DNA of 64,000 bases, taken from a bacterium. GTDB taxonomy: Bacteria; Electryoneota; Electryoneia; Electryoneales; Electryoneaceae. The stretch is taken from positions 2,688,001-2,752,000 of the forward strand of contig OY769902.1 of the NCBI GenBank assembly GCA_963669175.1. The letters are read 5' to 3'. Below the pieces are notes generated by a model. It was given only the letters and a program-made list of their open reading frames with translations, was not told where the DNA came from and did not search any database. Shown here in pieces: positions 1,803 to 31,655 of the stretch. The translations under genes were made by a program, and so were the position numbers. Numbering within the stretch: position 1 is the stretch's first letter; every line of letters starts with the position of its first letter.

Positions 1803-1828
1803 CGTCATTCCCGCGAAGGCGGGAATCT
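1803..1828 (+). repeat. CGTC-tagged REP-like palindrome CGTCATTCCCGCGAAGGCGGGAATCT
   Basis: Stem ATTCCCGC/GCGGGAAT preceded by a CGTC tag; intergenic. Confidence 0.75.
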
Positions 1829-1900
1829 ACTCCCTTTGAATTACAGAGTAATACTTGTTGCAACGTACAGTTCGTCTTCACTGGAAAAAGTGTTAGTCTC

Positions 1901-3253
1901 TTACCAGGCCTTTACCCGGTATTTCAACATGATTTCGCCATCTGCAGGAACCGGGACATTCCATTTGTAGGTACGGGAATCGGTTTTCCGGCCCTTGATG
2001 GATTCATTTTCTATGGACCAATTGGCATAATTGTGTTCAACCACGACAATAGTCACGGCTTCCTTCTTATGGTTGCGCAACGACAATTCCACTTCGTACT
2101 CGTAAACATTGCCGCGACGCACTTCATTGGTGACAACACGTTCGGCAACGAGGTCAAACGCTTTCCCGGTGACAAGTTGGATATCCTCATCACGTGGAGT
2201 ATGGTCGATATTGTCCTCACCGATGAATTCAAGGTTACCGTCGGAATCACGCTTCATCAAACGAACCAGTCCCTTGGGCAGAGGCAGGCCAAGCCCGTTT
2301 TCTTCCGAGTTCGTGAATTCCATGCTTACTGTGATCTTGGTCTGATCAACGCGGTTGTCGTAAGTGAAAACCTTTTTCGCTGGCGTACTTGCCGGCTCGA
2401 ACAGGCTGATCTGCTTCTGTTGATTGTGTTTGATCGTAACAGGGCGTGGCAGGGTATAGAGGTGGTATTCGAAGAATTCCTTCTCTGCGAACCCCTCATC
2501 CAGGGCAAAAAAGTCTACCGTATTGGCCTCCATGTAGCCACCTGCTTTACGCCCACGCACTTGTTGCAATACCTGCACATCACCAGCCATCAGTTTCAGC
2601 CTGGCGTTTTCATATGTAGCGCCGGAACGGTTGTCCATCTGAACCCAACCGGCCAGATCAATCGCGTCATCGTTGGCGGAGATCACGGCCACATAGCTTG
2701 CATTCCAGGAAATACCACGAGTAATGTAGGACAGATCGGCTTCCATCTTACCGGCCTTGTTCGCCACCAGTAACCAGCGCAAGGTCGGTTTGAGCATGAG
2801 ACCATCCGGCAAGGCGGGAAAATCAATACTGGTGATGGAAGCGTGGGTGATGGAACGGATGCGTCCGTCTTTCTCTTCCACGATTACCGGAGGACCGGCG
2901 CTGAGCAAACGTCCACGCACCAGGCCGCCCTGTTCAACCAGTTGAATCTCAATCTGTTCACCGATGTACTTGCTCATCAGGGCCGTATTGTCGACCAGGT
3001 CGTACTCGTAGTTCTGCTCGAGAATCTTCAGCCCTTTACCTTTTAGCAGAACCGAGGTTGGATCAATCTGGCTGGCTACACCGTCGTATGAGAATTCCTG
3101 CACGCCCTTTTCCAGGTCCAGGGTGCGTTTCTGACGTACCAGCGCCATGCCCTGGTTGTATACGGTAATAGCCGTGGTCGGCTCTTCGGCCAGTGCAACA
3201 ACGGCAAGACAAAGCAGGATAGCAGAAGTCACCAAAGTTTTTGGATGTTTCAT
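1901..3253 (-). CDS. Secreted DUF4139-domain protein
   Basis: Signal peptide from MKHPKT; TVYNQGMALVRQ, EQNYEYDL, LSYITRGISWNASY, FFEYHLYTL and GEDNIDHTP motifs typical of this family. Confidence 0.8.
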   Translation of the reverse strand: MKHPKTLVTSAILLCLAVVALAEEPTTAITVYNQGMALVRQKRTLDLEKGVQEFSYDGVASQIDPTSVLLKGKGLKILEQNYEYDLVDNTALMSKYIGEQIEIQLVEQGGLVRGRLLSAGPPVIVEEKDGRIRSITHASITSIDFPALPDGLMLKPTLRWLLVANKAGKMEADLSYITRGISWNASYVAVISANDDAIDLAGWVQMDNRSGATYENARLKLMAGDVQVLQQVRGRKAGGYMEANTVDFFALDEGFAEKEFFEYHLYTLPRPVTIKHNQQKQISLFEPASTPAKKVFTYDNRVDQTKITVSMEFTNSEENGLGLPLPKGLVRLMKRDSDGNLEFIGEDNIDHTPRDEDIQLVTGKAFDLVAERVVTNEVRRGNVYEYEVELSLRNHKKEAVTIVVVEHNYANWSIENESIKGRKTDSRTYKWNVPVPADGEIMLKYRVKAW

Positions 3254-3332
3254 CAGTTCCTCCCGAGTAGTTGGCAAATCACTGCAAACAGTACCGGCTC
3301 GATTTGTAAACATCAATCTGCACAAGACAAAG

Positions 3333-3390
3333 CAGGATGGTATTAAAATAACCATCCTGAGTATCCTTTACATCCTTTGCATCCTGTAAA
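3333..3390. repeat. 9-bp-period ATCCT tract with a short hairpin
   Basis: ATCCT at 3354, 3363, 3372 and 3381, preceded by an inverted CAGGATGGT. Confidence 0.7.
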
Positions 3391-3623: not shown

Positions 3624-6287
3624 TTACCCCAGGTCGGCCAGGTGCGCTTCCAGTTTCTTGACCTTGGCTTCGAAGTCAGCCAGTTTGTCACGTTCGTGCT
3701 GAACCACATCAGCCGGGGCGTTGTTCACGAATTTCTCGTTCTTCAGTTTCCCGGTGATGCCTTTCAGCAGGCCCTTCAATTTGCCGATTTCCTTTTCGAC
3801 ACGAGCTTTTTCCGCGTCAAGGTCGATCAGGCCCGCGAGGGGGACATACAGCTCACGTCCCTCGACAACCGTGGTCGCGGACTGAGAAGGTTTCGAATCG
3901 GTAACTTCCGGCCCTTCGCCCTGGAGTTTTGCCAACCTGCTGATCATCTGCCATTCACGTTCGATCAGGGCCAGTCTCGGCTCACCATTATTCACGGCAA
4001 TACGAGCGTCCTTGGAAGGCGGCACCTGCAATTCACCGCGTACGTTCCGTACCGCGCTGATCAGCTCCTGCACATAGCCGAATTCTTCCACAGCGACTCG
4101 GTCGGTTCCGGACTCATCAAATACCGGATAAGCAGCTACTGCCACCGATTCGCTGCGATCTTCCGGCCAGTTCACACCTTCCACCTGTACCAGCAGGCTA
4201 TAGATCTCTTCCGTGATATAGGGCATGAAAGGATGAAGCAGACGGACAATTTTATCCATCATGCCATAGGCGAAACGCAGCGTAGCGTCGCCCTGTTCGG
4301 CATCGGGGGAATCCTGGGCAATACGTGGCTTGATTGCTTCTATGTACCAGTCACAGAAATCGTTCCAGGTGAACCGGTAGATCGCCAGCAGCGCTTCATT
4401 CAGTTTGTATTTCTTCAAATATTTCCGAACATCATCAGCAGTCTGATTAAAGCGTCCTTCGATCCATTTATCCACGAGCTGCGGCTGGAACTCAGCGAAT
4501 TTCTCCGGATTCCGGAAATTGTAGGTCGCCAGGAAACGGAACGAATTCCACAGCTTGTTGGCGAAGTTACGGCCCATCTCAAAGCGGGTCGGGTCGAGGT
4601 TAATGTCCTGACCTTCTGTGGTCAGCACGACCAGGCTGTAACGGACAGCATCGGCGCCGTACTGGTCAATCATTTCCAGAGGATCAATGCCGTTACCCAG
4701 GGATTTGGACATCCAGCGGCCCTGCTTATCCTTGATCATACCGGTGATGTACACGGTGTCGTATGGGATCTGGCCGGTGAAATGCAGGTCAGCCATGATC
4801 ATCCGCGCGATCCAGAAGAAGATGATGTCGTAGCCGCTGACCAGTACGTTGGTCGGGTGATAGAAGTCCAGCTCCTTGGTCTTGTCCGGCCAGCCCAGGG
4901 TAGAGAAGGGCCACAACCAGCTCGAGAACCAGGTATCCAGCACGTCCTCATCCTGACGGATACGTTCGCTGCCGCACTTTTCGCATTTGGTTGGATCTTC
5001 ACGGTTGACCGTTACATGGTCACAATCCGCGCAATACCATGCCGGGATACGGTGACCCCACCAGAGCTGACGGCTGATGCACCAGTCCCGGATATTTTCC
5101 AACCACTGGTAGTAGACCTTCTCCCAGCGTGGTGGAACAAACTTGATCTCGCCGTTACGGACCACATCCAGGGCCGGATCGGCGAGTGGTTTCATCTTCA
5201 GGAACCACTGGGTTGACAGATAAGGCTCAATCGGCACCTTGCTACGGTTGCAATAGCCGACCGCGTGCATATGCTTCTCGATTTTGACCAGCAAGCCCGC
5301 TTCCTCGAGGTCTTTAACGATAGCGTCACGCGCTTCGAAACGGTCCATCCCGATGTATTTATCCGGCGCTGGCGCACAGATCTTTGCCGATGTATCCAGG
5401 ATGATCGGCATGGGCAGGTTGTGGCGTTTGCCCACTTCGAAGTCATTGGGATCATGCGCCGGGGTAACCTTCACACATCCGGTCCCGAATTCACGGTCCA
5501 CATAATCATCTTCAATTACGGGAATGGTGCGTCCGGTCAGGGGTAATTGCACTTCCTTACCCTTGAGATGAGTGTAGCGTTCATCTTCCGGATGAATCAT
5601 TACCGCGGTGTCGCCCAGCATCGTTTCCGGACGTGTGGTAGCGACAACAACCCCTTCGCTGCCGTCAACACCGGGATAACGGATGTGCCAGAGATGGCCT
5701 TCTTCGTCCTTGTGATCCACCTCTTCATCGCTGATCGCCGATTGCAAGGCAGGGGACCAGTTCACGATATACGGACCACGATAAACAAGGCCTTCTTCGT
5801 AGAGCTTAACGAACACTTCACGAACCGCCTTGGACAGGCCGTCATCGAGGGTGAAGCGTTCACGGCTCCAGTCCGCGGAGTCCCCAAGCGCCGCCTTCTG
5901 GCGGGTGATGGTGTCACGGTTACGCGCGACAACTTTCCAGACTTCTTCGACAAACTTTTCCCGTCCCAGTTCGGCGCGAGTCGGCATGCCGTTCTTCTTC
6001 AGCTCTTTCTCGGTCACGGTCTGGGTGGCGATGCCGGCGTGATCCTTGCCTGCCTGCCAGTGAGATTCGAAGCCCATCATGCGATGATAGCGAATCAAAG
6101 CGTCCTGGATAGAGTCCTGAAGGGCGTGCCCCATGTGCAATACGCCCGTCACATTTGGCGGCGGCATCATGATGCAATAGGATTTTTTGTCCGGATTCGG
6201 CTGTGTATCAAACAGGTGGTTTTCCTGCCACCATTCGGTCCACTTGGGCTCGACCTGCTTGGGGTCGTATAACTTCGGGATGTCCAC
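3624..6287 (-). CDS. valS: Valine--tRNA ligase
   Basis: PPPNVTGVLHMGHA (HIGH), ATTRPETMLGD, DWCISRQLWWGHRIP, WMSKS (KMSKS-like) and a C-terminal coiled coil. GTG start at 6287 inferred from a GGAG RBS. Confidence 0.97.
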   Translation of the reverse strand: MDIPKLYDPKQVEPKWTEWWQENHLFDTQPNPDKKSYCIMMPPPNVTGVLHMGHALQDSIQDALIRYHRMMGFESHWQAGKDHAGIATQTVTEKELKKNGMPTRAELGREKFVEEVWKVVARNRDTITRQKAALGDSADWSRERFTLDDGLSKAVREVFVKLYEEGLVYRGPYIVNWSPALQSAISDEEVDHKDEEGHLWHIRYPGVDGSEGVVVATTRPETMLGDTAVMIHPEDERYTHLKGKEVQLPLTGRTIPVIEDDYVDREFGTGCVKVTPAHDPNDFEVGKRHNLPMPIILDTSAKICAPAPDKYIGMDRFEARDAIVKDLEEAGLLVKIEKHMHAVGYCNRSKVPIEPYLSTQWFLKMKPLADPALDVVRNGEIKFVPPRWEKVYYQWLENIRDWCISRQLWWGHRIPAWYCADCDHVTVNREDPTKCEKCGSERIRQDEDVLDTWFSSWLWPFSTLGWPDKTKELDFYHPTNVLVSGYDIIFFWIARMIMADLHFTGQIPYDTVYITGMIKDKQGRWMSKSLGNGIDPLEMIDQYGADAVRYSLVVLTTEGQDINLDPTRFEMGRNFANKLWNSFRFLATYNFRNPEKFAEFQPQLVDKWIEGRFNQTADDVRKYLKKYKLNEALLAIYRFTWNDFCDWYIEAIKPRIAQDSPDAEQGDATLRFAYGMMDKIVRLLHPFMPYITEEIYSLLVQVEGVNWPEDRSESVAVAAYPVFDESGTDRVAVEEFGYVQELISAVRNVRGELQVPPSKDARIAVNNGEPRLALIEREWQMISRLAKLQGEGPEVTDSKPSQSATTVVEGRELYVPLAGLIDLDAEKARVEKEIGKLKGLLKGITGKLKNEKFVNNAPADVVQHERDKLADFEAKVKKLEAHLADLG

Positions 6288-23712: not shown

Positions 23713-26661
23713 ATGCTTCGTTCTCGCATCTTATTGCTTTGTATCCTGGTCGCTTTGTCCGCCAGTACTGTCTTGTTTGCGCAACCCGTTTCCGAAACGG
23801 GCGATCTGCCTGAAGAAGGCTGGCAGTTGGTAGAGCAGGGGACCACCTGGCTGGATCTTTTCCCGGGGGTTGCGAATCGTGCCAACCTTGATGAAACCGT
23901 AACTGAATTTGATCCGGGAACAGACCCCGAGGGTGATTTCATGGGGCAGGTGGCCTTTTCCACTGACGGCGCTCGTGTGCTCCTGACCAACAGGGTGACC
24001 AACAATATCAGCGTCTACAATGTCGAGAACATGGAATTGCTGGAAAACATCAGTGTAGGCAACTATCCCTGTTACATCGCCTGCACGGATGAGTATGCCA
24101 TTGTGCCGTGCGCTTTTGCTGATAGTGTCTGGATTATTGATCTGGATGATTATTCCACGGCTGCCATTATTCCTACGGGCGAACAACCCTGGATTGTCCA
24201 TGTCACGGATGACGGCGCCCGTGCGTTAGTCGCAACGGATATTGATAACACCCTGGAAGTGATTGACCTGGAAAACCTCACCTTGTTGAATACTATCGAG
24301 AATGTCCCGTTTTCGTTGATTTCCTATTCCTGGAATTCAGAGAGCGGCCGGAACATGATCAAATTCCTGGATTTCCTGTATGTCCCGGGCACAGAGCATG
24401 TGATGTTCTCCAACCGTGAGGAGGCGATCTGGATTTACGATTTTGAAGGTGGTGAGCTGGCGGACAGCATTACGGGACTGGCAAATATCCTGGCGATGGC
24501 TGTTTCCGGTGATGGCTCCACATTGATCGCTGCCAATAGCGAAAACAGCACGGCAACTGCGTATCAGATTGATCTTGAAACATATGCCATTACCGATTCC
24601 GCGGTTTGTACAGGGCATTCACTGTCCACCTACCAGATTGGTGTCAATGATGATGGCAGCAAGTGCTATCTCGGTGTCGGCGGCAATGTAAGCGCCATGA
24701 TTGACTTCACGGATAACGATATTACCTACTTCGATCAGACCTACACTGCGTTCTGGATCGGTGTAAATGCCGACCATAGCCATGTGGTCAGCGGTCAGTA
24801 CCGTTTTTCCATTCTTGACTTTGACACGGAAAGCATTCTGGGTTCCTACTGGGGCTATTCGCAGTGGACCGGAACTGTATCGCCTGTAGACGAGATTTGT
24901 GTAGGGCTTTCACCGTTGACCGATGAAGTCATGTATGTCTACGACTTCACCAACCCGGCGTCCATCACCTTCGATAACAGCCTGGTTGCCGGGGAGAACC
25001 CGGAAGCTGATGGTCCGCGTCGTGTGGCGATCACATCAGATGGTTCCCTCGCAGTGGCAACTCATGTGATCAGCGATAACGCTACCATCATTGACCTGGA
25101 AACGATGGAGACACTTGTTACACTCTATATCGGCGACCGTGTGCAGGATGTCGCGATTACGCCCGATGACGCCTACGCGGTGATCTGCGGATTCAACAGC
25201 AACAACGCGCATATCATTGATCTGGATTTGTTGATGCAGGTGACCACAGTTCCCTGCGGCCAACGCCCCATGTGTATCGCCATGGACCCGGACGGTGAAT
25301 ACGCTTACATCTCCAACGTATCAGACAACACGATCACATTCATCGCGCTGGATGGCGCGAACAGTTCGGCAGTTGGAACAGTTGCCTGTGGTACGATCGG
25401 CGTGAACTGGTCCAGCTATGGCGTAGGTAGCCAGATAGCCGTAACCCCTGATGGCGAATACCTGCTGGTTTGTGCATCATTTGATGACGTGCTTAAAGTG
25501 ATCGATACAGATACTCGTACAGTAGTGGCGACGGTTCCGACTGGTGATTTTCCACTGCAGGTGGCGATTAATGATGCCAGTACACGTGCGGTTGTAACCA
25601 ACAACAACGACTACACCTATTCCTATATCGAGCTGGATGGTGCGAGCAGCAACACGATTGGAACATATGGTGTGGGGGCGCATCCGCTTCGGGTAGCGTA
25701 TGACGGTTTCAATGAGCGTTTCCTGATTGGCGACATTTCCAACGCCAACCTGTACTATGTGGATGAAGAATCGGGCGCTGTTTCCGGTTCGGACAGTTAC
25801 GCGGCCTATGGCGCTATCACCGGGGTTGCGGTAGATGATTTCGGTGATGCGGTTGTGATGACGGCTGCCAATGGCGACATCCCCGGCATGGTACACAAAG
25901 GTGATGTCCATAGTGAGTACCCGGGATCGGCCGCTATGCTGGCTTATCAACCGGATGCGGATATTGCAGCGGTTCCTGTGCCCGGTCCGGACTGGATCAC
26001 CTTTGTCCAGTATGACGCGGTCAACCACCCGCCGTCCCATTTCGCATTGCTGGAACCGGAAGATTTTGATACGGTTACTGTGGATATGGAAACGCTGAAC
26101 TTCTACTGGGAGGAATCAGTCGATCTCGATCCCGGTGATGAGGTTCATTATACCTTTGAAGTTGACCCTGTAAATGCCGGCAGCACTCTTGTCGTTGAAG
26201 ACTTGACCGATACGACTTACATGATGGACCCCTACGTGCTGGAGGGCCTGGTTGATAATCCGAATATCTTCCAGCCTTTCTGGTGGCGAGTCCTGGCGAT
26301 TAGTGGGGAGGATACTGTTGAATGTGATGAGCGCTTCGGCTTGTTGCTGGAGCCGCCAATATGGGTTGATGACGATGCAGAAGCGGCGTTACCGACAGTC
26401 GCATCCATCACCGATGCCTATCCGAACCCGTTCAACTCCACGGTCACCATTCGTTTCGGACTCCCGTCAGCGGGTACAGTAAAGATGACGGTGTTCGATG
26501 TGTTGGGACGTGAAGTAACTTCACTGCTGAACCAGAGTGTCAGTGCGGGACATCATATCCTTAGCTGGGAAGCGGGTGCGACGCTGCCGAGCGGGATGTA
26601 CTGGATCAGGCTTGAAGCGGGCACCGAAACCAGCTTACGGCGAGTTACTCTGATAAAGTAG
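23713..26661 (+). CDS. Secreted YVTN-type beta-propeller repeat protein with C-terminal sorting (T9SS-A/FlgD-like) domain
   Basis: Signal peptide; repeated 'V..I.VG..P..IA.T.DG' units; C-terminal YPNPFNSTVTIRF...FDVLGREV...LPSGMYWIRL. Confidence 0.85.
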   Translation: MLRSRILLLCILVALSASTVLFAQPVSETGDLPEEGWQLVEQGTTWLDLFPGVANRANLDETVTEFDPGTDPEGDFMGQVAFSTDGARVLLTNRVTNNISVYNVENMELLENISVGNYPCYIACTDEYAIVPCAFADSVWIIDLDDYSTAAIIPTGEQPWIVHVTDDGARALVATDIDNTLEVIDLENLTLLNTIENVPFSLISYSWNSESGRNMIKFLDFLYVPGTEHVMFSNREEAIWIYDFEGGELADSITGLANILAMAVSGDGSTLIAANSENSTATAYQIDLETYAITDSAVCTGHSLSTYQIGVNDDGSKCYLGVGGNVSAMIDFTDNDITYFDQTYTAFWIGVNADHSHVVSGQYRFSILDFDTESILGSYWGYSQWTGTVSPVDEICVGLSPLTDEVMYVYDFTNPASITFDNSLVAGENPEADGPRRVAITSDGSLAVATHVISDNATIIDLETMETLVTLYIGDRVQDVAITPDDAYAVICGFNSNNAHIIDLDLLMQVTTVPCGQRPMCIAMDPDGEYAYISNVSDNTITFIALDGANSSAVGTVACGTIGVNWSSYGVGSQIAVTPDGEYLLVCASFDDVLKVIDTDTRTVVATVPTGDFPLQVAINDASTRAVVTNNNDYTYSYIELDGASSNTIGTYGVGAHPLRVAYDGFNERFLIGDISNANLYYVDEESGAVSGSDSYAAYGAITGVAVDDFGDAVVMTAANGDIPGMVHKGDVHSEYPGSAAMLAYQPDADIAAVPVPGPDWITFVQYDAVNHPPSHFALLEPEDFDTVTVDMETLNFYWEESVDLDPGDEVHYTFEVDPVNAGSTLVVEDLTDTTYMMDPYVLEGLVDNPNIFQPFWWRVLAISGEDTVECDERFGLLLEPPIWVDDDAEAALPTVASITDAYPNPFNSTVTIRFGLPSAGTVKMTVFDVLGREVTSLLNQSVSAGHHILSWEAGATLPSGMYWIRLEAGTETSLRRVTLIK

Positions 26662-26677
26662 CAAGATACTCAAGAAG

Positions 26678-26722
26678 ATTTACAGGATGAACAGGATGTG
26701 AAGGATTAACAGGATAAAGATA
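26678..26722. repeat. AGGAT tract (inverted ATCCT family), 9-bp period
   Basis: AGGAT at 26684, 26693, 26702 and 26711. Confidence 0.75.
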
Positions 26723-26760
26723 TTTTAAGTTGTTTAAGAGATTGACTATGGGAGATTAAC

Positions 26761-27033
26761 ATGCCAAGTATAGCTATTGAGTTCTCGAGATTTTTGGAAG
26801 AAGCGAGGAATATGAGTTTGCGTGAAGTAATTTATAATGCACAAAGGATTGGTATGCGTATGGAACAAGAAAGATATGATGATGCTTTAAATATGCAAAG
26901 ATTGAAAGAATTTACATTTTCATTGAGAAATAATTTAGAAGGATCAAAAATCTGTTCCTTATATAAACCTATTGTTGATTCGTTAATTGGTCGAGGTGAG
27001 CTTCAAGATACTGGTTTTACATATTACTCATAA
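26761..27033 (+). CDS. AT-rich orphan protein (90 aa)
   Basis: GGGAG RBS, ATG start, clean ORF in a low-GC patch; no motif recognised. Confidence 0.6.
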   Translation: MPSIAIEFSRFLEEARNMSLREVIYNAQRIGMRMEQERYDDALNMQRLKEFTFSLRNNLEGSKICSLYKPIVDSLIGRGELQDTGFTYYS

Positions 27034-27037
27034 TACC

Positions 27038-27130
27038 TTTTATCCTTATCATACTTAATATCCTTGGCATCCTGTATATTGAGTCATTATCCTGTGAATC
27101 CTGGAGAAATCCTGTATATCTTGTGAATCC
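27038..27130. repeat. ATCCT tract (two blocks)
   Basis: Units at 27042, 27051, 27060, 27069 and at 27089, 27098, 27109, 27118, 27127. Confidence 0.75.
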
Positions 27131-27149
27131 AACAAGTGAGGAGAGTGTA

Positions 27150-29774
27150 GTGGCGACCCCCATGATGCAGCAGTACCGTCAAATCAAGAAGCAGTACCCG
27201 GAAGATGTGATTTTCTTCCGCATGGGGGATTTCTTCGAGATGTTCCACGAGGACGCCAAAACCGCCCACAAAGTCCTCGGCATCACTCTGACTCGTCGCA
27301 ATCACGGCAAGGGTGAAGATGCCGGCACTCCTCTCGCTGGCTTCCCCCATCATCAGCTCGAGACGTACCTCGCCAAGATGACCCGCGCGGGCTATCGTGT
27401 CGTGGTCGTGGAGCAGGTGGAAGACCCGAAGAAGGCCAAGGGACTGGTCAAACGTGATATTGTCCAGATCGTCACTGCAGGCACAAACTTTTGCGAACAG
27501 GCCCTGGATTCAGGAAAAAACCAGTTCCTCGCTGGAGTGGTGAAGCTGGAAAAGAAGGCCGGGATCGCATTCTGTGACGCTACGACCGGCGAGTTCACCG
27601 CGGCTTCGGTGCCGTTTGACCAGGTGCGTGACCTGCTGGACCTGGTGTATCCGGCGGAAGTGATCATGCCCGATGATCAACGCGATGACTTCAAAGAGCT
27701 GTTGCCCACCGGGGTGATGCGGACCCTGCTGCCGCCGTGGATTTTCGAGACTCAATTCGCACGCGACACCCTGATCGAACATTTCAAGGTGAGAAGTCTG
27801 AAAGGATTCGGGGTGGAGGACGACCTGGCGGCTATCGGCGCGGCGGGTTCGGTGATGCATTATGTGCGTGAGAACCTGCGTGTCGACCCAGAACATATCA
27901 AGGGGCTGTCACGTCTGCCGCTCGACGATGTCATGCTGTTGGATGCTTCCACACGCCGCAATCTGGAGCTGGTAGAGCCATTGTGGGGATCGGACCGCAC
28001 CAGCACACTGCTTTTCCATATCGACCGCACTGTTACCCCGTTCGGACGCCGTCAGTTTATCCTGAACCTGTTGCGTCCTTTACTGGACAAAGCATCCATT
28101 GAAAGACGTCATGACGCGGTTGAAGACCTGGTCGAGAATACCGAATTCCGGCGTGGACTGCGGGAACGATTCCGTGAGTTGGCGGATTTGGAACGTCTTG
28201 TCGGTCGTATTGCTGCCATGCGCGCCAATCCACGTGACTTGGCGGCGTTGCGAGAAACTCTGCTGGCCATTCCGGGTATTCGTGACCACGTTCAACGAAA
28301 CGCCCAGGCTGACGCGCTATCCCAGGCGGCTACGGCGCTCGATACGCTGGATGAGTTGGTTGACCTGTTGAGCAGGGCGGTTGCGGATGAACCTCCGGCC
28401 ATGCTGGCCAAGGGCGGAGCGATTCGACAAGGCTACCATGAAGAACTGGATGAGCTTCGTCGGGTGGCGCGTGGCGGGAAAGAGTATATCCTGTCACGGC
28501 AGCAGGAGGAACGCGAAGCTACCGGTATCAACAGCCTGAGTATCAAGTACAACAAGGTGTTCGGATACTATATCGAGGTATCGAAGGCAAACCTGGACAA
28601 GGTGCCGGAACACTATATCCGAAAGCAGACGCTTGTCAATGCCGAACGCTTTATCACGCCTGACCTGAAGGAATGGGAAGACAAGATTCTGACCGCCGAA
28701 GAACGTATGCTGGTGCTGGAGAAGGAGCTGTTCGACCAGCTATGCATGGACATCACCCACTATGCGGGCAAGATCCAGTTCAACGCTCGTGTGCTGGCCC
28801 TTCTGGATTTCCTGGCAGCGGCGGCAGAGATCGCGGTTGAGAAACGGTACACTCGTCCGGTGATCCGTGAGGACAGCCGTCTCCTGCTGGTGAAGAGCCG
28901 TCATCCGGTGGTCGAGAACCTGCTCCCGGTCGGGGATTCGTTTGTCGCCAATGATCTGGATATCGACAGTGACAAACGCTCTATCGCACTGGTGACCGGG
29001 CCGAACATGGGCGGGAAATCGACATACCTGCGTCAAGTTGGCTTGATTATCCTGATGGCGCAGGCCGGGCTGTTTGTCCCGGCGGAACGTGCCGAGATCC
29101 CGATCACCGACCGGATTTTCACCCGTGTGGGCGCGTCGGATAACCTCGCCGCGGGGGAGAGTACCTTCCTGGTCGAGATGCACGAAGCAGCCAATATCCT
29201 GCACAACGCGACCGGCAAAAGCCTGATTCTGCTGGACGAGATTGGACGTGGAACCAGCACCTTCGATGGCCTGTCACTGGCCTGGTCGATTGTGGAATAC
29301 CTGCATGATTACCCCGGCGGCGCCAAGCCGAAAACCCTGTTTGCGACCCATTACCACGAACTGACCGAGCTGGAACACAAACTGGACCGTGTCTTTAACC
29401 TGCATGTGCAGGTGAAGGAATGGGGCGACCGTGTCATCTTCCTGCGCAAAATCGCAGCCGGGGTGAGCGGAGCCAGCTACGGTATCCAGGTAGCTCGCCT
29501 CGCCGGACTGCCGCAGAAGGTGATTGACCGTGCCAAGGAAGTCCTCGCCGCACTGGAAGCGAGTGACATCACACCGAACAACCTGCCACACAAGGGACGC
29601 CGTCCGCAAACCGACGCTGTCCCTTCCAACGATGATCCCCTGCAACTGACCCTGTTCACGAAAGAAGAACGCGCCCTGCGTGACGAGATCGCCAAGGCCG
29701 ACCTGGATAACATGACGCCCCTCGAAGCGCTGAGGTTCCTCGCAGATTTGAAAGGGAAGTATGGGGGAGGGTGA
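27150..29774 (+). CDS. mutS: DNA mismatch repair protein MutS
   Basis: TPMMQQY, FRMGDFFEMF, TGPNMGGKSTYLRQ, DEIGRGTST, FATHYHEL, clamp motif QLTLF; GTG at 27150 after GAGGAG. Confidence 0.98.
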   Translation: MATPMMQQYRQIKKQYPEDVIFFRMGDFFEMFHEDAKTAHKVLGITLTRRNHGKGEDAGTPLAGFPHHQLETYLAKMTRAGYRVVVVEQVEDPKKAKGLVKRDIVQIVTAGTNFCEQALDSGKNQFLAGVVKLEKKAGIAFCDATTGEFTAASVPFDQVRDLLDLVYPAEVIMPDDQRDDFKELLPTGVMRTLLPPWIFETQFARDTLIEHFKVRSLKGFGVEDDLAAIGAAGSVMHYVRENLRVDPEHIKGLSRLPLDDVMLLDASTRRNLELVEPLWGSDRTSTLLFHIDRTVTPFGRRQFILNLLRPLLDKASIERRHDAVEDLVENTEFRRGLRERFRELADLERLVGRIAAMRANPRDLAALRETLLAIPGIRDHVQRNAQADALSQAATALDTLDELVDLLSRAVADEPPAMLAKGGAIRQGYHEELDELRRVARGGKEYILSRQQEEREATGINSLSIKYNKVFGYYIEVSKANLDKVPEHYIRKQTLVNAERFITPDLKEWEDKILTAEERMLVLEKELFDQLCMDITHYAGKIQFNARVLALLDFLAAAAEIAVEKRYTRPVIREDSRLLLVKSRHPVVENLLPVGDSFVANDLDIDSDKRSIALVTGPNMGGKSTYLRQVGLIILMAQAGLFVPAERAEIPITDRIFTRVGASDNLAAGESTFLVEMHEAANILHNATGKSLILLDEIGRGTSTFDGLSLAWSIVEYLHDYPGGAKPKTLFATHYHELTELEHKLDRVFNLHVQVKEWGDRVIFLRKIAAGVSGASYGIQVARLAGLPQKVIDRAKEVLAALEASDITPNNLPHKGRRPQTDAVPSNDDPLQLTLFTKEERALRDEIAKADLDNMTPLEALRFLADLKGKYGGG

Positions 29775-29824
29775 AGCGTTTCATGATATTGGCATTGTCT
29801 TCCACGCCATGCTTGTCTCTACAA

Positions 29825-29952
29825 GTCATTCCCGACCTATATGTCATCCTCGACCACCCTGTCATCCCCGGCCCTCCACTATGTCATCCTCGACCACCCT
29901 GTCATCCCCGGCCCTCCACTATGTCATCCCCGGCTTGAACGGGGATCTCGAG
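29825..29952 (+). repeat. Left TGTCATCC repeat arm flanking the GIY-YIG gene
   Basis: Exact 40-bp duplication (29841-29880 = 29881-29920), then the full palindrome TGTCATCCCCGGCTTGAACGGGGATCTCGAG. Confidence 0.9.
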
Positions 29953-29994
29953 CGATGTCGAGCAAAGACCTAATCAACAGAAAGGGAATTTGTT

Positions 29995-30276
29995 ATGTAT
30001 TACGTTTACATCCTGACCAATGACCGGCATACGGTTTTCTATACAGGGATCACTAATGATATTGTCAGACGTGTGCATGAGCACAAAGAGAAAATGATTG
30101 AGGGGTTTACGAAGCAGTACAATGTATCCAAGCTAGTCTATTTCGAAGAACATCACAGAGTTGATGATGCCATCCGCAGGGAAAAGAGACTCAAGAAATG
30201 GGACAGGGCGTGGAAAATAGAATTGATTGAAAAGGATAATCCGGAATGGAGCGATTTGTATGATATGTTCTTTTGA
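29995..30276 (+). CDS. Stand-alone GIY-YIG nuclease family protein
   Basis: YVYIL...YTGIT..RR..EH..GFT.Y....LVYFE....AI.REK.LK.W.R.WKI.LIE..NP.W.DL; the expected catalytic Tyr, Arg and Glu are present. Confidence 0.92.
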   Translation: MYYVYILTNDRHTVFYTGITNDIVRRVHEHKEKMIEGFTKQYNVSKLVYFEEHHRVDDAIRREKRLKKWDRAWKIELIEKDNPEWSDLYDMFF

Positions 30277-30284
30277 CATCCTCA

Positions 30285-30962
30285 CACCGGTCTCGAGATC
30301 CCCGTTCGAGCCGGGGATGACATAGCGGAGGACTGGGGATGACATGTCGTTAGGATTGGCGCACCGGTCTCGAGATCCCCGTTCGAGCCGGGGATGACAT
30401 AGCGGAGGACTGGGGATGACATGTCGTTAGGATTGGCGCACCGGTCTCGAGATCCCCGTTCGAGCCGGGGATGACATAGGGGAGGGCCGGGGATGACATA
30501 GTGTCGGGTATTGGCGCACCGGTCTCGAGATCCCCGTTCGAGCCGGGGATGACATAGTGTCGGGTATTGGCGCACCGGTCTCGAGATCCCCGTTCGAGCC
30601 GGGGATGACATAGCGGAGGACTGGGGATGACATGTCGTTAGGATTGGCGCACCGGTCTCGAGATCCCCGTTCGAGCCGGGGATGACATAGGGGAGGGCCG
30701 GGGATGACATAGTGTCGGGTATTGGCGCACCGGTCTCGAGATCCCCGTTCGAGCCGGGGATGACATAGTGTCGGGTATTGGCGCACCGGTCTCGAGATCC
30801 CCGTTCGAGCCGGGGATGACAATCTATATGAGGATGACAAGCTATATGGGGATGACTGGTTATATGAGGATGACATGCTATATGGGGATGACATGTGTAA
30901 AAAGGATGACATGTAGACCGGGGATGACAGTGGGGTTGAGGGTGACATGGAGTGCGGGAATG
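30285..30962 (-). repeat. Right repeat arm: 8 x 38-bp palindromic core plus 18-bp GGATGAC stubs
   Basis: CACCGGTCTCGAGATCCCCGTTCGAGCCGGGGATGACA at 30285, 30362, 30439, 30517, 30573, 30650, 30728 and 30784, then about 8 decaying 18-bp units. Confidence 0.95.
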
Positions 30963-31178
30963 GAAAGAAGCCTCTTAGCGTTAAAAGCAATTCCTTTTCA
31001 TTCCTGCAATTAGTACTCATTGTGCGTACAATAATAAAGGTGTTCCGGGAGGGGTGACTGGGATAATTATCACAAGGATCCTTACCGGGAATTTCCCACC
31101 AGCACCTGGAGCCGGGTGAGTAAGTGGTTCGATCCATCATGCCTGATGCAATGGATCATTAGCAAGGGAGGAGTGGCT

Positions 31179-31655
31179 ATGCAGGTACATCGTCAACACA
31201 AGAACGTGCTCCTGGGACTGCTGCTATTCTGTTTGTTGCCCATCGTGTCTTTCGCGAATGTCCTGACCGTGGATGAGGTCATGGCGGGTGATTTCCTCCG
31301 TTTCGGTGACTGGAAAACTCATATCACCGGAATAACAGCGCCGGCCCCTGATACGGAATGGGGCAAGGTTGCGCTTGATTTTGCCATCGAGACGCTTCAA
31401 GGCAAGGCAGTGAAAGTCTTTACCCTGACCACCAACAACACCGCTGCCGGGATCGTATACGGGGAAGATGGGAATGCCTTCGCTACGATCCTCTGTGGTG
31501 AGAACCGTGACCAGGATTTCGCCGTTCTGTTACTGGAACGTGGGCTGGCCAAAGTGAACACCGAAACCCTGCAGGAGGACCAGCAGAATTACCTCGAGGT
31601 CGAGAAAAAAGCCCGAGATAAGAAACTCGGGTTATGGTCCGACGAAACAGAATAA
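31179..31655 (+). CDS. Secreted thermonuclease (SNase)-fold protein, catalytic residues degenerate
   Basis: Signal peptide; GITAP, LLERGLA and E.KAR.KKLGLWS match the SNase pattern; RBS GGGAGGAG. Confidence 0.75.
   Translation: MQVHRQHKNVLLGLLLFCLLPIVSFANVLTVDEVMAGDFLRFGDWKTHITGITAPAPDTEWGKVALDFAIETLQGKAVKVFTLTTNNTAAGIVYGEDGNAFATILCGENRDQDFAVLLLERGLAKVNTETLQEDQQNYLEVEKKARDKKLGLWSDETE

Follow-up and report, generated by a model that had tools for sequence, protein, structure and literature searches.

The window analysed here, a whole stretch of 64 kb of bacterial DNA, very probably harbors an Ssn/SRM cassette, in which an Ssn-family GIY-YIG endonuclease lies between arrays of the motif that it recognizes. 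This system was already described in 2025, and the window locus adds a member to a known family. Ssn proteins are single-domain GIY-YIG nucleases that bind a hairpin motif, named NTS or SRM, as ssDNA only (Chenal et al., Nat Commun 2025, PMC11893778). Four Ssn homologs were found to cleave ssDNA in vitro a few nucleotides upstream of the hairpin, and the homologs characterised did not act on duplex DNA (PMC11893778). An earlier, sequence-only reading of the same DNA had proposed the GIY-YIG protein as the enzyme that belongs to the tagged hairpins around it, an idea now supported by the linkage of gene and motif across relatives, by modest co-variation and by the published biochemistry of homologs (PMC11893778). 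Its remark that no established mechanism was known is outdated, since the Ssn system was published in March 2025 (PMC11893778); the idea was right and, for the same reason, is no longer new. That the enzyme might also amplify or mobilise the hairpins is a hypothesis.

The ssn gene (29995..30276, + strand) encodes a nuclease of the Ssn (SsnA-like) family, 93 aa long and with GIY-YIG as its only domain, as indicated by its open reading frame, by Pfam, by an alignment of relatives and by a gonococcal match. In CDD, this family corresponds to cd10448 (GIY-YIG_unchar_3). The gene is intergenic and chromosomal, and its ORF starts 220 nt past the stop of mutS (29774). An intact 93-aa GIY-YIG gene had been read at this place after mutS, and the Pfam search agrees, with GIY-YIG (PF01541) matching residues 1-75 of the protein at E = 4.4e-16; besides this domain, the search gave just a sub-threshold match to T5orf172. 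Membership in the Ssn family requires a single-domain protein of ~90-100 aa, and the window protein counts 93 aa with no other domain found by Pfam. An alignment of 25 relatives shows five invariant residues, Y5, Y16, R26, E63 and N82. Allowing for a one-residue difference in length, Y5, Y16 and E63 would correspond to Y6, Y17 and E64 of the 94-aa SsnA of Neisseria meningitidis, whose alanine mutants at these positions lose cleavage (PMC11893778); Y6 and Y17 are the catalytic tyrosines of the GIY and YIG motifs, and E64 is the glutamate that binds the metal. The GC content of ssn is ~0.45, compared to ~0.57-0.61 for mutS.

Identity to Neisseria was measured on an ssnA-like ORF of N. gonorrhoeae, other than the characterised N. 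meningitidis SsnA, and the pairwise alignment with the window protein is gap-free, with 51% identity (44/86 aa) and E = 5e-36. In a 7.3-Gb collection, tblastn reported two N. gonorrhoeae records with 92% of the query covered (E = 2e-25), and eight NTS motifs within 3.3 kb surround the gonococcal ORF. Compared with this ORF, the window protein lies within the published tblastn threshold (E < 1e-10 over >75% of the length) and, at 51%, below the stricter identity threshold of at least 60%, a cut-off that applies to the conservative search alone and does not define the family (PMC11893778). Neisseria names, sought as a route to N. MENINGITIDIS SsnA, were absent among the 120 listed homologs. No NCBIfam model, no PHROGs family and no phage record matched the Ssn protein. 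A PADLOC match to UzuA (18 bits) covered the GIY motif region alone and was discounted. The 64-kb window contains no second copy of ssn, the next best tblastn match having E = 1.9.

On the left of ssn, one full SRM is found on the + strand (29922..29952), made of a TGTCAT tag pointing outward, a 7-bp stem, a 7-nt loop and a tail ATC-TCGAG, and recognized by its exact match to the published SRM pattern and by its DNA fold. Directly 5' of it, five hairpin-less boxes, each formed by the tag, the 5' stem arm and a filler, make up a half-SRM array (29824..29921, + strand; repeat families D4 and D5), with starts at 29824, 29842, 29860, 29882 and 29900 and a spacing of 18/18/22/18/22 nt. On the right, the array at 30292..30821 (- strand; repeat families D1 and D2) comprises eight identical full SRMs, with five half-SRM boxes and repeated spacers of two kinds in between. 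The full copies occupy 30292-30322, 30369-30399, 30446-30476, 30524-30554, 30580-30610, 30657-30687, 30735-30765 and 30791-30821, with start-to-start distances of 77, 77, 78, 56, 77, 78 and 56 nt that reveal a higher-order repeat of 211 nt (77+78+56 nt), and the whole resembles a NIME array. The full unit is 31 nt long, and the right copies differ from the left one by one loop base. The initial description, namely an upstream unit at 29922-29952 followed downstream by eight identical reverse-complement copies with one difference in the loop, proved exact. The same is true of the second subunit that it saw in both arms, a 22-nt unit of tag and 5' arm without hairpin, which has two copies on the left; on the right, two copies are of the C variant and three of yet another one. 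Farther out, seven half-SRM boxes with a strict 18-nt period (5' ends from 30839 to 30947) and then a degenerate end form the outer right array (30822..30962, - strand; repeat family D3, inverted pair I8).

The two arms reach 29824 and about 30962 through these outer 18-nt-periodic boxes. Their outermost 45 nt are 82% complementary (29827-29871 with 30918-30962, inverted pair I8), and another inverted pair at the locus, I3, spans 53 nt with 92% complementarity. In all, we counted 26 tag boxes, i.e., nine full SRMs (1 left, 8 right) and 17 hairpin-less boxes; six lie on the + strand left of ssn and 20 on the - strand right of it, so that 26 out of 26 point outward. The nine full repeats, one upstream and eight downstream of ssn, all fit without mismatch the published search pattern HGTCWYN(0-2)YYVSBRHN(0-5)WNVSBRGN(0-2)RNCYNB (PMC11893778, Methods). 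A pattern search also detected a solo SRM of the canonical Neisseria NTS type in an intergenic region (1803..1830, + strand), which agrees with the published consensus at 27/28 positions and has a stem unlike that of the copies flanking ssn. Across the other 62.8 kb of the window, it is the only solo copy of the canonical type, and no further copy of the local motif variant was detected there. In Neisseria, the targets are spread genome-wide.

Such a concentration is not expected by chance. With up to 3 mismatches allowed, the window contains nine copies of the 21-nt hairpin core, all at the locus, while 0.00 are expected from 100 shuffles. The 11-nt tag and arm (up to 1 mismatch) were found 19 times, including 17 at the locus, against 1.36 expected and a shuffle maximum of 5. 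Similarly, the published SRM pattern gave 10 matches in the window, compared to a mean of 0.40 and a maximum of 3 in 50 first-order resamples. The SRM folds into a 7-bp hairpin of -6.8 kcal/mol, a value that 18 of 200 shuffles equalled or surpassed, making the energy alone unremarkable.

The association of the gene with its motif extends to relatives. Full flanks were available for 72 sources, i.e., 71 loci from many phyla and the window itself. A loose finder that accepted G-U pairs and loops of up to 60 nt returned 813 matches in 81 sources, too many to be trusted, and was therefore replaced by a strict finder restricted to Watson-Crick pairs and checked at shifted control positions. The expectation that homologs would be flanked by such hairpins was borne out, since the strict finder placed a hairpin within 250 nt of the gene in 61/72 sources and on both sides in 36/72, compared to 12/403 and 0/403 of the controls. 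With the published pattern, at least one match lies within 300 nt of the gene in 45/80 loci and matches are present on both sides in 21/80, values close to the published 71% and 42%, which refer to 5-kb flanks (PMC11893778); the other 35/80 loci have zero matches within 300 nt. The density of pattern matches reaches 1.81 per kb near the gene vs. 0.081 per kb further off, and their orientation is biased, with 28 '+' and 11 '-' upstream and 29 '-' and 16 '+' downstream. An inverted repeat of >30 bits connects the 500-nt flanks in 37 of the 75 testable sources, whereas the 99th percentile of the shifted controls (n = 257) is 27.6 bits, with one outlier at 66.

The hairpins also vary together with the gene. 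Over 12 nt, arms differ by 2.37 mismatches within a locus vs. 5.38 between loci (0/5000 permutations as low), and hairpin distance correlates with protein distance in a Mantel test (r = 0.27; 3/2000 permutations as high), both analyses relying on the loose finder combined with a tail filter, with host relatedness as a confounder. Among 46 distinct 28-nt SRMs, 97.8% of cells pair, compared to 19-54% in slid registers, and 4 of the 8 stem pairs changed on both sides (31 cells), with a covariation score that 0/500 shuffles reached. The test proposed in the sequence-only reading, whether flanking hairpins of homologs co-vary with the gene, is modestly positive.

By analogy with the characterised enzymes, the cassette may work as follows. 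Once the region becomes single-stranded, be it as lagging-strand template, as a repair or recombination intermediate or as incoming transforming or conjugative DNA, the hairpin would fold. Ssn would then bind through the stem and the C after it, with the sequence of the motif stem likely to matter, and would leave duplex DNA and RNA alone. In the presence of Mg2+, it would hydrolyse the strand that carries the motif, at a position a few nucleotides 5' to the tag, and the reverse strand would be no substrate. For the NTS, cleavage was also shown with a split motif, whose 3' arm is on a separate oligonucleotide (PMC11893778). Since all tags point outward, the left motifs being top-strand and the right ones bottom-strand, each motif at the window locus would have its predicted cut on the outer flank, within the 18-22-nt half-motif boxes. 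The window protein probably has this activity on its own variant motif. The Neisseria enzyme lost activity when the stem sequence was changed and the hairpin kept (PMC11893778), so that its specificity is not transferable to the variant of the window. The half-motif arrays and the eight-fold array may result from slippage, or from misaligned repair, at the flank that is cut. We infer that the cassette is maintained and spreads as a whole, judging by its low GC, by its IS-like ends and by the fact that its closest relatives belong to other phyla.

The same enzyme and target could serve another biological purpose, and in this respect the explanation overlaps with that of an active selfish element of the IS, MITE or REPIN type. 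Ssn would be the mobilising nuclease, SRM-ssn-SRM the autonomous form and gene-less doublets the non-autonomous one, and the arrays would represent footprints of amplification. We regard this as possible, if rather unlikely. Inverted ends with tags outward are present in the window and in most relatives, and SRM matches far from the nuclease genes form tail-to-tail doublets of the same polarity (9 '+-' vs. 1 '-+'), in addition to 14 unpaired matches. The closest Ssn relatives (65-69% identity) carry the names Omnitrophica, WWE3 and Ignavibacteria, in contrast to the relatives of MutS, named Calditrichaeota, KSB1 or Ca. Electryonea (the MutS of one relative is 87% identical), and the GC of ssn below that of mutS agrees with a mobile history. 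Of the tag boxes without hairpin, 27 are located solely 5' of full SRMs, 1 solely 3' and 3 between two SRMs, and the 5' side is the published cut flank (PMC11893778). An IS-like reading and an analogy with IS200/IS605 and REP were raised in the Discussion of the same paper (PMC11893778, March 2025). Half-motif arrays with an 18-23-nt period 5' of a full hairpin were seen in the window as well as in loci of Betaproteobacteria, Actinomycetota, Cloacimonadota, Saccharibacteria and Planctomycetales and on a cyanobacterial plasmid; together with the gene-less doublets, they fit a REPIN-like selfish element, but do not prove it.

On the other hand, the cassette shows the inverted ends of an insertion sequence without any known transposase domain (Pfam), and no target-site duplication was seen on inspection of its outer ends. 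The 64 kb hold neither a second ssn nor a second locus of the cognate motif, 32 of the 33 matching plasmid records are typed non-mobilizable, phage records are devoid of matches to Ssn, and no transposition event was observed. Moreover, no GIY-YIG enzyme is known to perform strand transfer, so that joining would fall to host repair. It seems doubtful to us that Ssn/SRM is self-amplifying, as a functional equivalent of REPIN/RAYT built on a hydrolytic GIY-YIG enzyme; the half-motif arrays would then be the footprints left when repeated cuts by Ssn are repaired out of register or with a switch of template, and the doublets would be non-autonomous progeny.

Homing enzymes of the I-TevI type possess a separate DNA-binding domain and cut duplex DNA. 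They have the catalytic GIY-YIG domain in common with the window protein, and the low GC and intergenic position of ssn would suit a free-standing, duplex-cutting homing endonuclease that landed in older palindromic repeats, a scenario that is nevertheless very improbable. The 93-aa protein consists of the catalytic domain alone, with no extra DNA-binding domain in Pfam, and this chromosomal gene has no PHROGs or phage match, which largely refutes a homing endonuclease. In addition, homologs from many phyla have this motif in their flanks and the arms track the gene, both unexpected for an accidental landing site, and characterised Ssn members are inactive on duplex DNA (PMC11893778). Least credible of all is that the repeats act independently of the nuclease, as terminators or attenuators, structured RNA or a CRISPR-like array: hairpins do recur at regular spacing downstream of the gene, but a terminator scan gave 0 sites vs. 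1.3 expected, no Rfam family matched up to E = 1, ORFs through the repeats had no Pfam match above the curated cut-off, and the linkage of gene and motif across phyla argues for a functional pair, so that the comparative data refute such a function as the sole explanation. A CRISPR array was rejected because the spacers are not unique and are themselves repeated (two types, three repeat-unit kinds, a 211-nt higher-order repeat). A promoter scan remained at chance level.

Taken as an Ssn/SRM cassette, the locus confirms that a partnership of enzyme and repeats inferred from sequence alone is real and already published, and it does not represent a discovery. The Ssn field gains a further member, of an uncultivated lineage close to Calditrichaeota/KSB1, whose distinct motif variant could provide a new cleavage specificity for ssDNA tools. 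NIME-like arrays occur outside Neisseria, where none had been seen according to a 2007 genome paper (PMC1797815). The polar half-motif architecture recurs across phyla, and the gene-less doublets are strictly tag-outward. Neither the half-motif arrays nor these doublets appear in the main text of PMC11893778, which is also free of the words "tandem," "minisatellite," "MITE," "REPIN" and "doublet." Both features bear on two questions raised in that paper, i.e., whether NTS-ssnA-NTS is a domesticated mobile element and how the repeats multiply (PMC11893778). Our literature search retrieved, by title or abstract, no relevant work joining GIY-YIG with REP, REPIN or a prokaryotic transposase/TIR, and, among the papers listed, no later one on the mechanism or mobility of Ssn; besides PMC11893778 itself, these were three papers citing it and an unrelated SLX4 review.

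Among known systems, the only solved relative is a distant one, the UPF0213 protein BH0048 (PDB 1zg2). Proteins of this group are likewise single-domain, of ~100 aa, with a GIY-YIG catalytic domain, but 1zg2 matches the window protein just at E = 0.004 and its function is unassigned. The REP/RAYT and IS200/IS605 systems are similar in layout. In both cases, a single-copy gene lies within short, inverted tagged hairpins whose active form is ssDNA, inverted doublets without a gene are found elsewhere in the genome, and the enzyme recognizes a hairpin and cuts beside it. The fold is different, i.e., GIY-YIG in the window vs. HUH Y1 in TnpA_REP, and Pfam found no HUH Y1 transposase between the window repeats. 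GIY-YIG enzymes are hydrolytic nucleases and are not known to form a covalent tyrosine intermediate of the HUH kind, so that they would be unable to rejoin DNA alone. The RAYT/REP-like arrangement first proposed for this locus therefore holds for the layout and not for the chemistry. The role demonstrated for Ssn in Neisseria is also different, being the restriction of incoming ssDNA and not transposition (PMC11893778).

The closest counterpart is the Ssn/NTS system of Neisseria itself. In both, the GIY-YIG protein counts ~94 aa, consists of a single domain and has its catalytic Y/Y/E residues at the same positions; the hairpin is directional, carrying a GTCAT tag and, right after the stem, a C; and motifs lie on both sides of the gene. 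The repeated spacers between the hairpins of the window are also shared with the neisserial NIME arrays (PMC1797815). The differences lie in the motif and in its arrangement. The stem is ATCCCCG in the window vs. ATTCCCGCG in Neisseria, and the tail ATCTCG vs. ATCYRG. All tags of the window point outward, whereas the two copies nearest to the N. gonorrhoeae gene point inward. The downstream array of the window is strictly tandem and eight-fold, half-motif arrays with an 18-22-nt period precede its full motifs on the 5' side, and its host is an uncultivated bacterium placed by MutS near Calditrichaeota/KSB1.

The GIY-YIG gene of the window, ssn, is an intact ORF encoding 93 aa (29995-30276, + strand). 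Its neighbors are mutS (27123-29774), with five domains, whose stop codon lies 220 nt upstream, and an ORF for a secreted SNase-like protein (31116-31655) that begins 839 nt past the end of ssn. The GIY-YIG domain (PF01541) covers residues 1-75 of the protein (E = 4.4e-16), and the Pfam search found no second domain. A tblastn comparison of the protein with the whole window found no further copy, the next-best match having an E-value of 1.9. The GC content of ssn is ~0.45, against ~0.57-0.61 for mutS. Of 2012 length-matched candidates that were scored, 2006 are relatives at E ≤ 0.001; the best ones share 65-70% identity and carry names from several phyla, and the sole solved relative, 1zg2, is distant (E = 0.004). 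Residues Y5, Y16, R26, E63, and N82 are invariant in the protein and 25 aligned relatives. Judged by MutS, the best named relatives of the host are Calditrichaeota, candidate division KSB1 and Ca. Electryonea (50-70% identity), and one further MutS relative is 87% identical. Just 5' of mutS lies an AT-rich stretch (26600-27100, GC 0.32-0.37 vs. ~0.55 in its surroundings) that contains a 90-aa ORF (26761-27033) without Pfam match.

Tagged hairpins flank ssn on both sides. On the left, a full unit of 31 nt (29922-29952, + strand) combines the tag TGTCAT with a stem of 7 bp, a loop of 7 nt and a tail, and is preceded on the same strand by five half boxes, i.e., tag, 5' stem arm and filler without hairpin, at 18- or 22-nt spacing. 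On the right, downstream of ssn, eight identical full units on the - strand succeed one another at start-to-start distances of 77, 77, 78, 56, 77, 78, and 56 nt, with a higher-order repeat of 211 nt; five half boxes lie within this array and seven outer ones, with a strict 18-nt period, reach as far as ~30962, all on the - strand. Tags point outward from ssn in all 26 boxes (six left on +, 20 right on -). The 21-nt core occurs nine times against 0.00 expected, each time inside the ssn locus, and the 11-nt tag plus arm 19 times against 1.36 expected. The folding energy of the hairpin (-6.8 kcal/mol) is not significant, 18 of 200 shuffles folding equally well. The sequence-only reading, which had described an intact GIY-YIG gene after mutS amid inverted arrays of tagged hairpins, is confirmed.

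The linkage of gene and hairpin was followed in the best 80 of at least 595 confirmed relatives in genome contigs, with flanks of up to 4 kb. In 75 testable sources (74 loci and the window, six loci with short flanks being left out), blastn was run between the 500 nt upstream and the 500 nt downstream of the gene, and 37 of them exhibited an inverted repeat above 30 bits; among 257 shifted controls, one outlier reached 66 bits and the 99th percentile was 27.6 bits. Nearly all these repeats are one object, composed of a (T/C)GTCAT tag, a 7-9-bp stem, a short loop, the complementary arm and ATCCAG or similar, which adjoins gene start and stop with tags mostly outward. The expectation that homologs would be flanked by such hairpins was borne out by a strict Watson-Crick finder, since 61 of the 72 sources with full flanks harbor one within 250 nt of the gene (36 on both sides), against 12/403 shifted positions (0/403 on both sides). 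In a set of 46 different copies of 28 nt, pairing holds for 97.8% of stem cells, and changes on both sides affect four of eight stem pairs (31 cells); the covariation score was matched by none of 500 shuffles, and slid registers pair at only 19-54%. The predicted co-variation of hairpin and gene also held, albeit modestly: arms of the same locus are more alike than arms of different loci (2.37 vs. 5.38 mismatches per 12 nt; 0/5000 permutations as low), and arms tend to differ more where the proteins do, though the link is weak (Mantel r = 0.27; 3/2000 permutations as high). Both results come from a less strict finder, and relatedness of the hosts confounds them.

Literature searches that joined GIY-YIG to terms for repeats or transposons yielded no relevant paper; exactly such a pairing is described by Chenal et al. 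(Nat Commun 2025; PMC11893778). According to these authors, SsnA of Neisseria meningitidis (94 aa, CDD family cd10448) has a GIY-YIG domain and no other. Its target, the NTS hairpin of 28 nt, is the Neisseria form of the Ssn-related motif (SRM); SsnA binds it as single-stranded DNA only, cuts a few nucleotides upstream, and leaves duplex DNA, RNA, and the reverse strand untouched. Binding depends most on the C after the palindrome and cutting on the three bases preceding it, cutting being abolished by Y6A, Y17A, and E64A. For three other homologs, too, cleavage of their own motifs was shown, at least one SRM is present in the 5-kb flanks of 71% of homologs (both sides, 42%), and SsnA lowers transformation of N. 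meningitidis by NTS-bearing DNA (PMC11893778).

The published SRM search pattern fits all nine full units of the ssn locus without mismatch, and matches the window 10 times, where 50 resamples gave 0.40 matches on average and never more than 3. Across the 80 loci, it occurs within 300 nt of the gene in 45 (both sides in 21), with a density of 1.81 per kb near the gene vs. 0.081 farther off and a biased orientation (28 "+" vs. 11 "-" upstream; 29 "-" vs. 16 "+" downstream). The window protein matches two 2.17-Mb N. gonorrhoeae records of the plasmids collection over 92% of its length (E = 2e-25), and shares 51% identity (44/86, no gaps) with their ssnA-like ORF, which is surrounded by eight NTS motifs in 3.3 kb; it thereby falls within the homology criterion of the paper and below its stricter 60% cut-off. 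No Neisseria-named protein appears among 120 listed relatives of a betaproteobacterial homolog. Linkage in relatives and the published SRM pairing (PMC11893778) thus support the proposal that the GIY-YIG protein is the cognate enzyme of the hairpins and, judged from its sequence, the window locus is a further member of the already described Ssn/SRM system.

Some neighboring observations concern individual loci. One gonococcal record (NZ_CP119142.1, 1360-1877) carries a plasmid label despite its length of 2.17 Mb. Upstream of the GIY motif, its ssnA-like frame runs back to the nearest stop without an in-frame ATG, GTG, or TTG, and may therefore be disrupted or mis-sequenced in its 5' part. Its two nearest NTS copies have tags toward the gene, whereas those of the window point outward. 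On Planktothrix agardhii plasmid p1 (NZ_LR882964.1), an ssn homolog (2492-2776, 59.8% identity to the window protein) is flanked by two annotated defence genes, an MmeI-type restriction-modification gene and DISARM drmA. In the window, a solo motif of canonical NTS type (1803-1830, + strand; 27/28 consensus positions) lies in the intergenic stretch between a recG-like ORF (2-1735, -) and an ORF at 1901-3355 (-); its stem is unlike that of the ssn-flanking copies, so that it may belong to a different Ssn paralog encoded elsewhere in the genome, or be a relic.

By analogy with the characterised homologs, we commit to the same mechanism for the window locus: once the region becomes single-stranded, each hairpin would fold, and Ssn would bind to stem and adjoining C, hydrolysing the hairpin-bearing strand at a point 5' of the tag and a few nucleotides from it. 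From the numbering of the paper (a product of 20 nt, G26 as the mutated tag base, and C49 as the base that follows the palindrome; PMC11893778), we infer that the cut precedes the 28-nt motif by ~4 nt. In the window, this predicts cuts ~4 nt outside each TGTCAT, with 29917/29918 as the approximate position of a top-strand example. As tags point outward on opposite strands, all these cuts would fall on the outer flank of their motif.

The ssn cassette might be a self-amplifying, REPIN-like element, although this is not the likelier reading. Half boxes are almost all 5' of full motifs (27 distinct 5'-only, one 3'-only, three between two motifs; without the window 23 vs. 1, 12 of these from one locus). 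The array architecture of the window is repeated beside ssn genes in six further lineages, where half motifs (tag, 5' arm and filler) with an 18-23-nt period end in a full hairpin (L049:3723-3891 and 4474-4607; L039:1325-1385 and 1930-2005; L006:4290-4353; L011:4354-4406; L031:4298-4349; Planktothrix plasmid L082:2177-2491 and 2777-3090). Away from the ssn genes, SRM matches form tail-to-tail doublets with outward tags (nine "+-", one "-+", 14 unpaired), e.g., L050:2747-2827, L043:1022-1088, L062:3406-3478, and L075:955-1035 with 11-25-nt spacers, which look like non-autonomous versions of the cassette. Half motifs, doublets, and the eight-fold array fit such an element, but do not show it: no target-site duplication was seen at the window cassette, a second copy is missing from the window, 32 of 33 plasmid records matching the protein are typed non-mobilizable and no phage record matches it. 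GIY-YIG chemistry is not known to offer a way of rejoining DNA without host repair. Other readings are rejected: the repeats gave 0 sites in a terminator scan, matched no known RNA family, and differ from a CRISPR array in that the spacers are themselves repeated; repeat-encoded ORFs have no Pfam family above cut-off; and the protein has only an 18-bit partial match to a defence system.

The enzyme-hairpin pairing is thus known and some architectural detail of the locus goes beyond the main text of the Ssn paper. The terms "tandem," "minisatellite," "MITE," "REPIN," and "doublet" are absent from that text, and the Discussion remarks on the IS-like look of NTS-ssnA-NTS and compares it with IS200/IS605-REP/BIME (PMC11893778). 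Neisserial NIME arrays, which a 2007 paper stated were not observed outside Neisseria (PMC1797815), consist of hairpins parted by repeated spacers, and so does the eight-fold array of the window.
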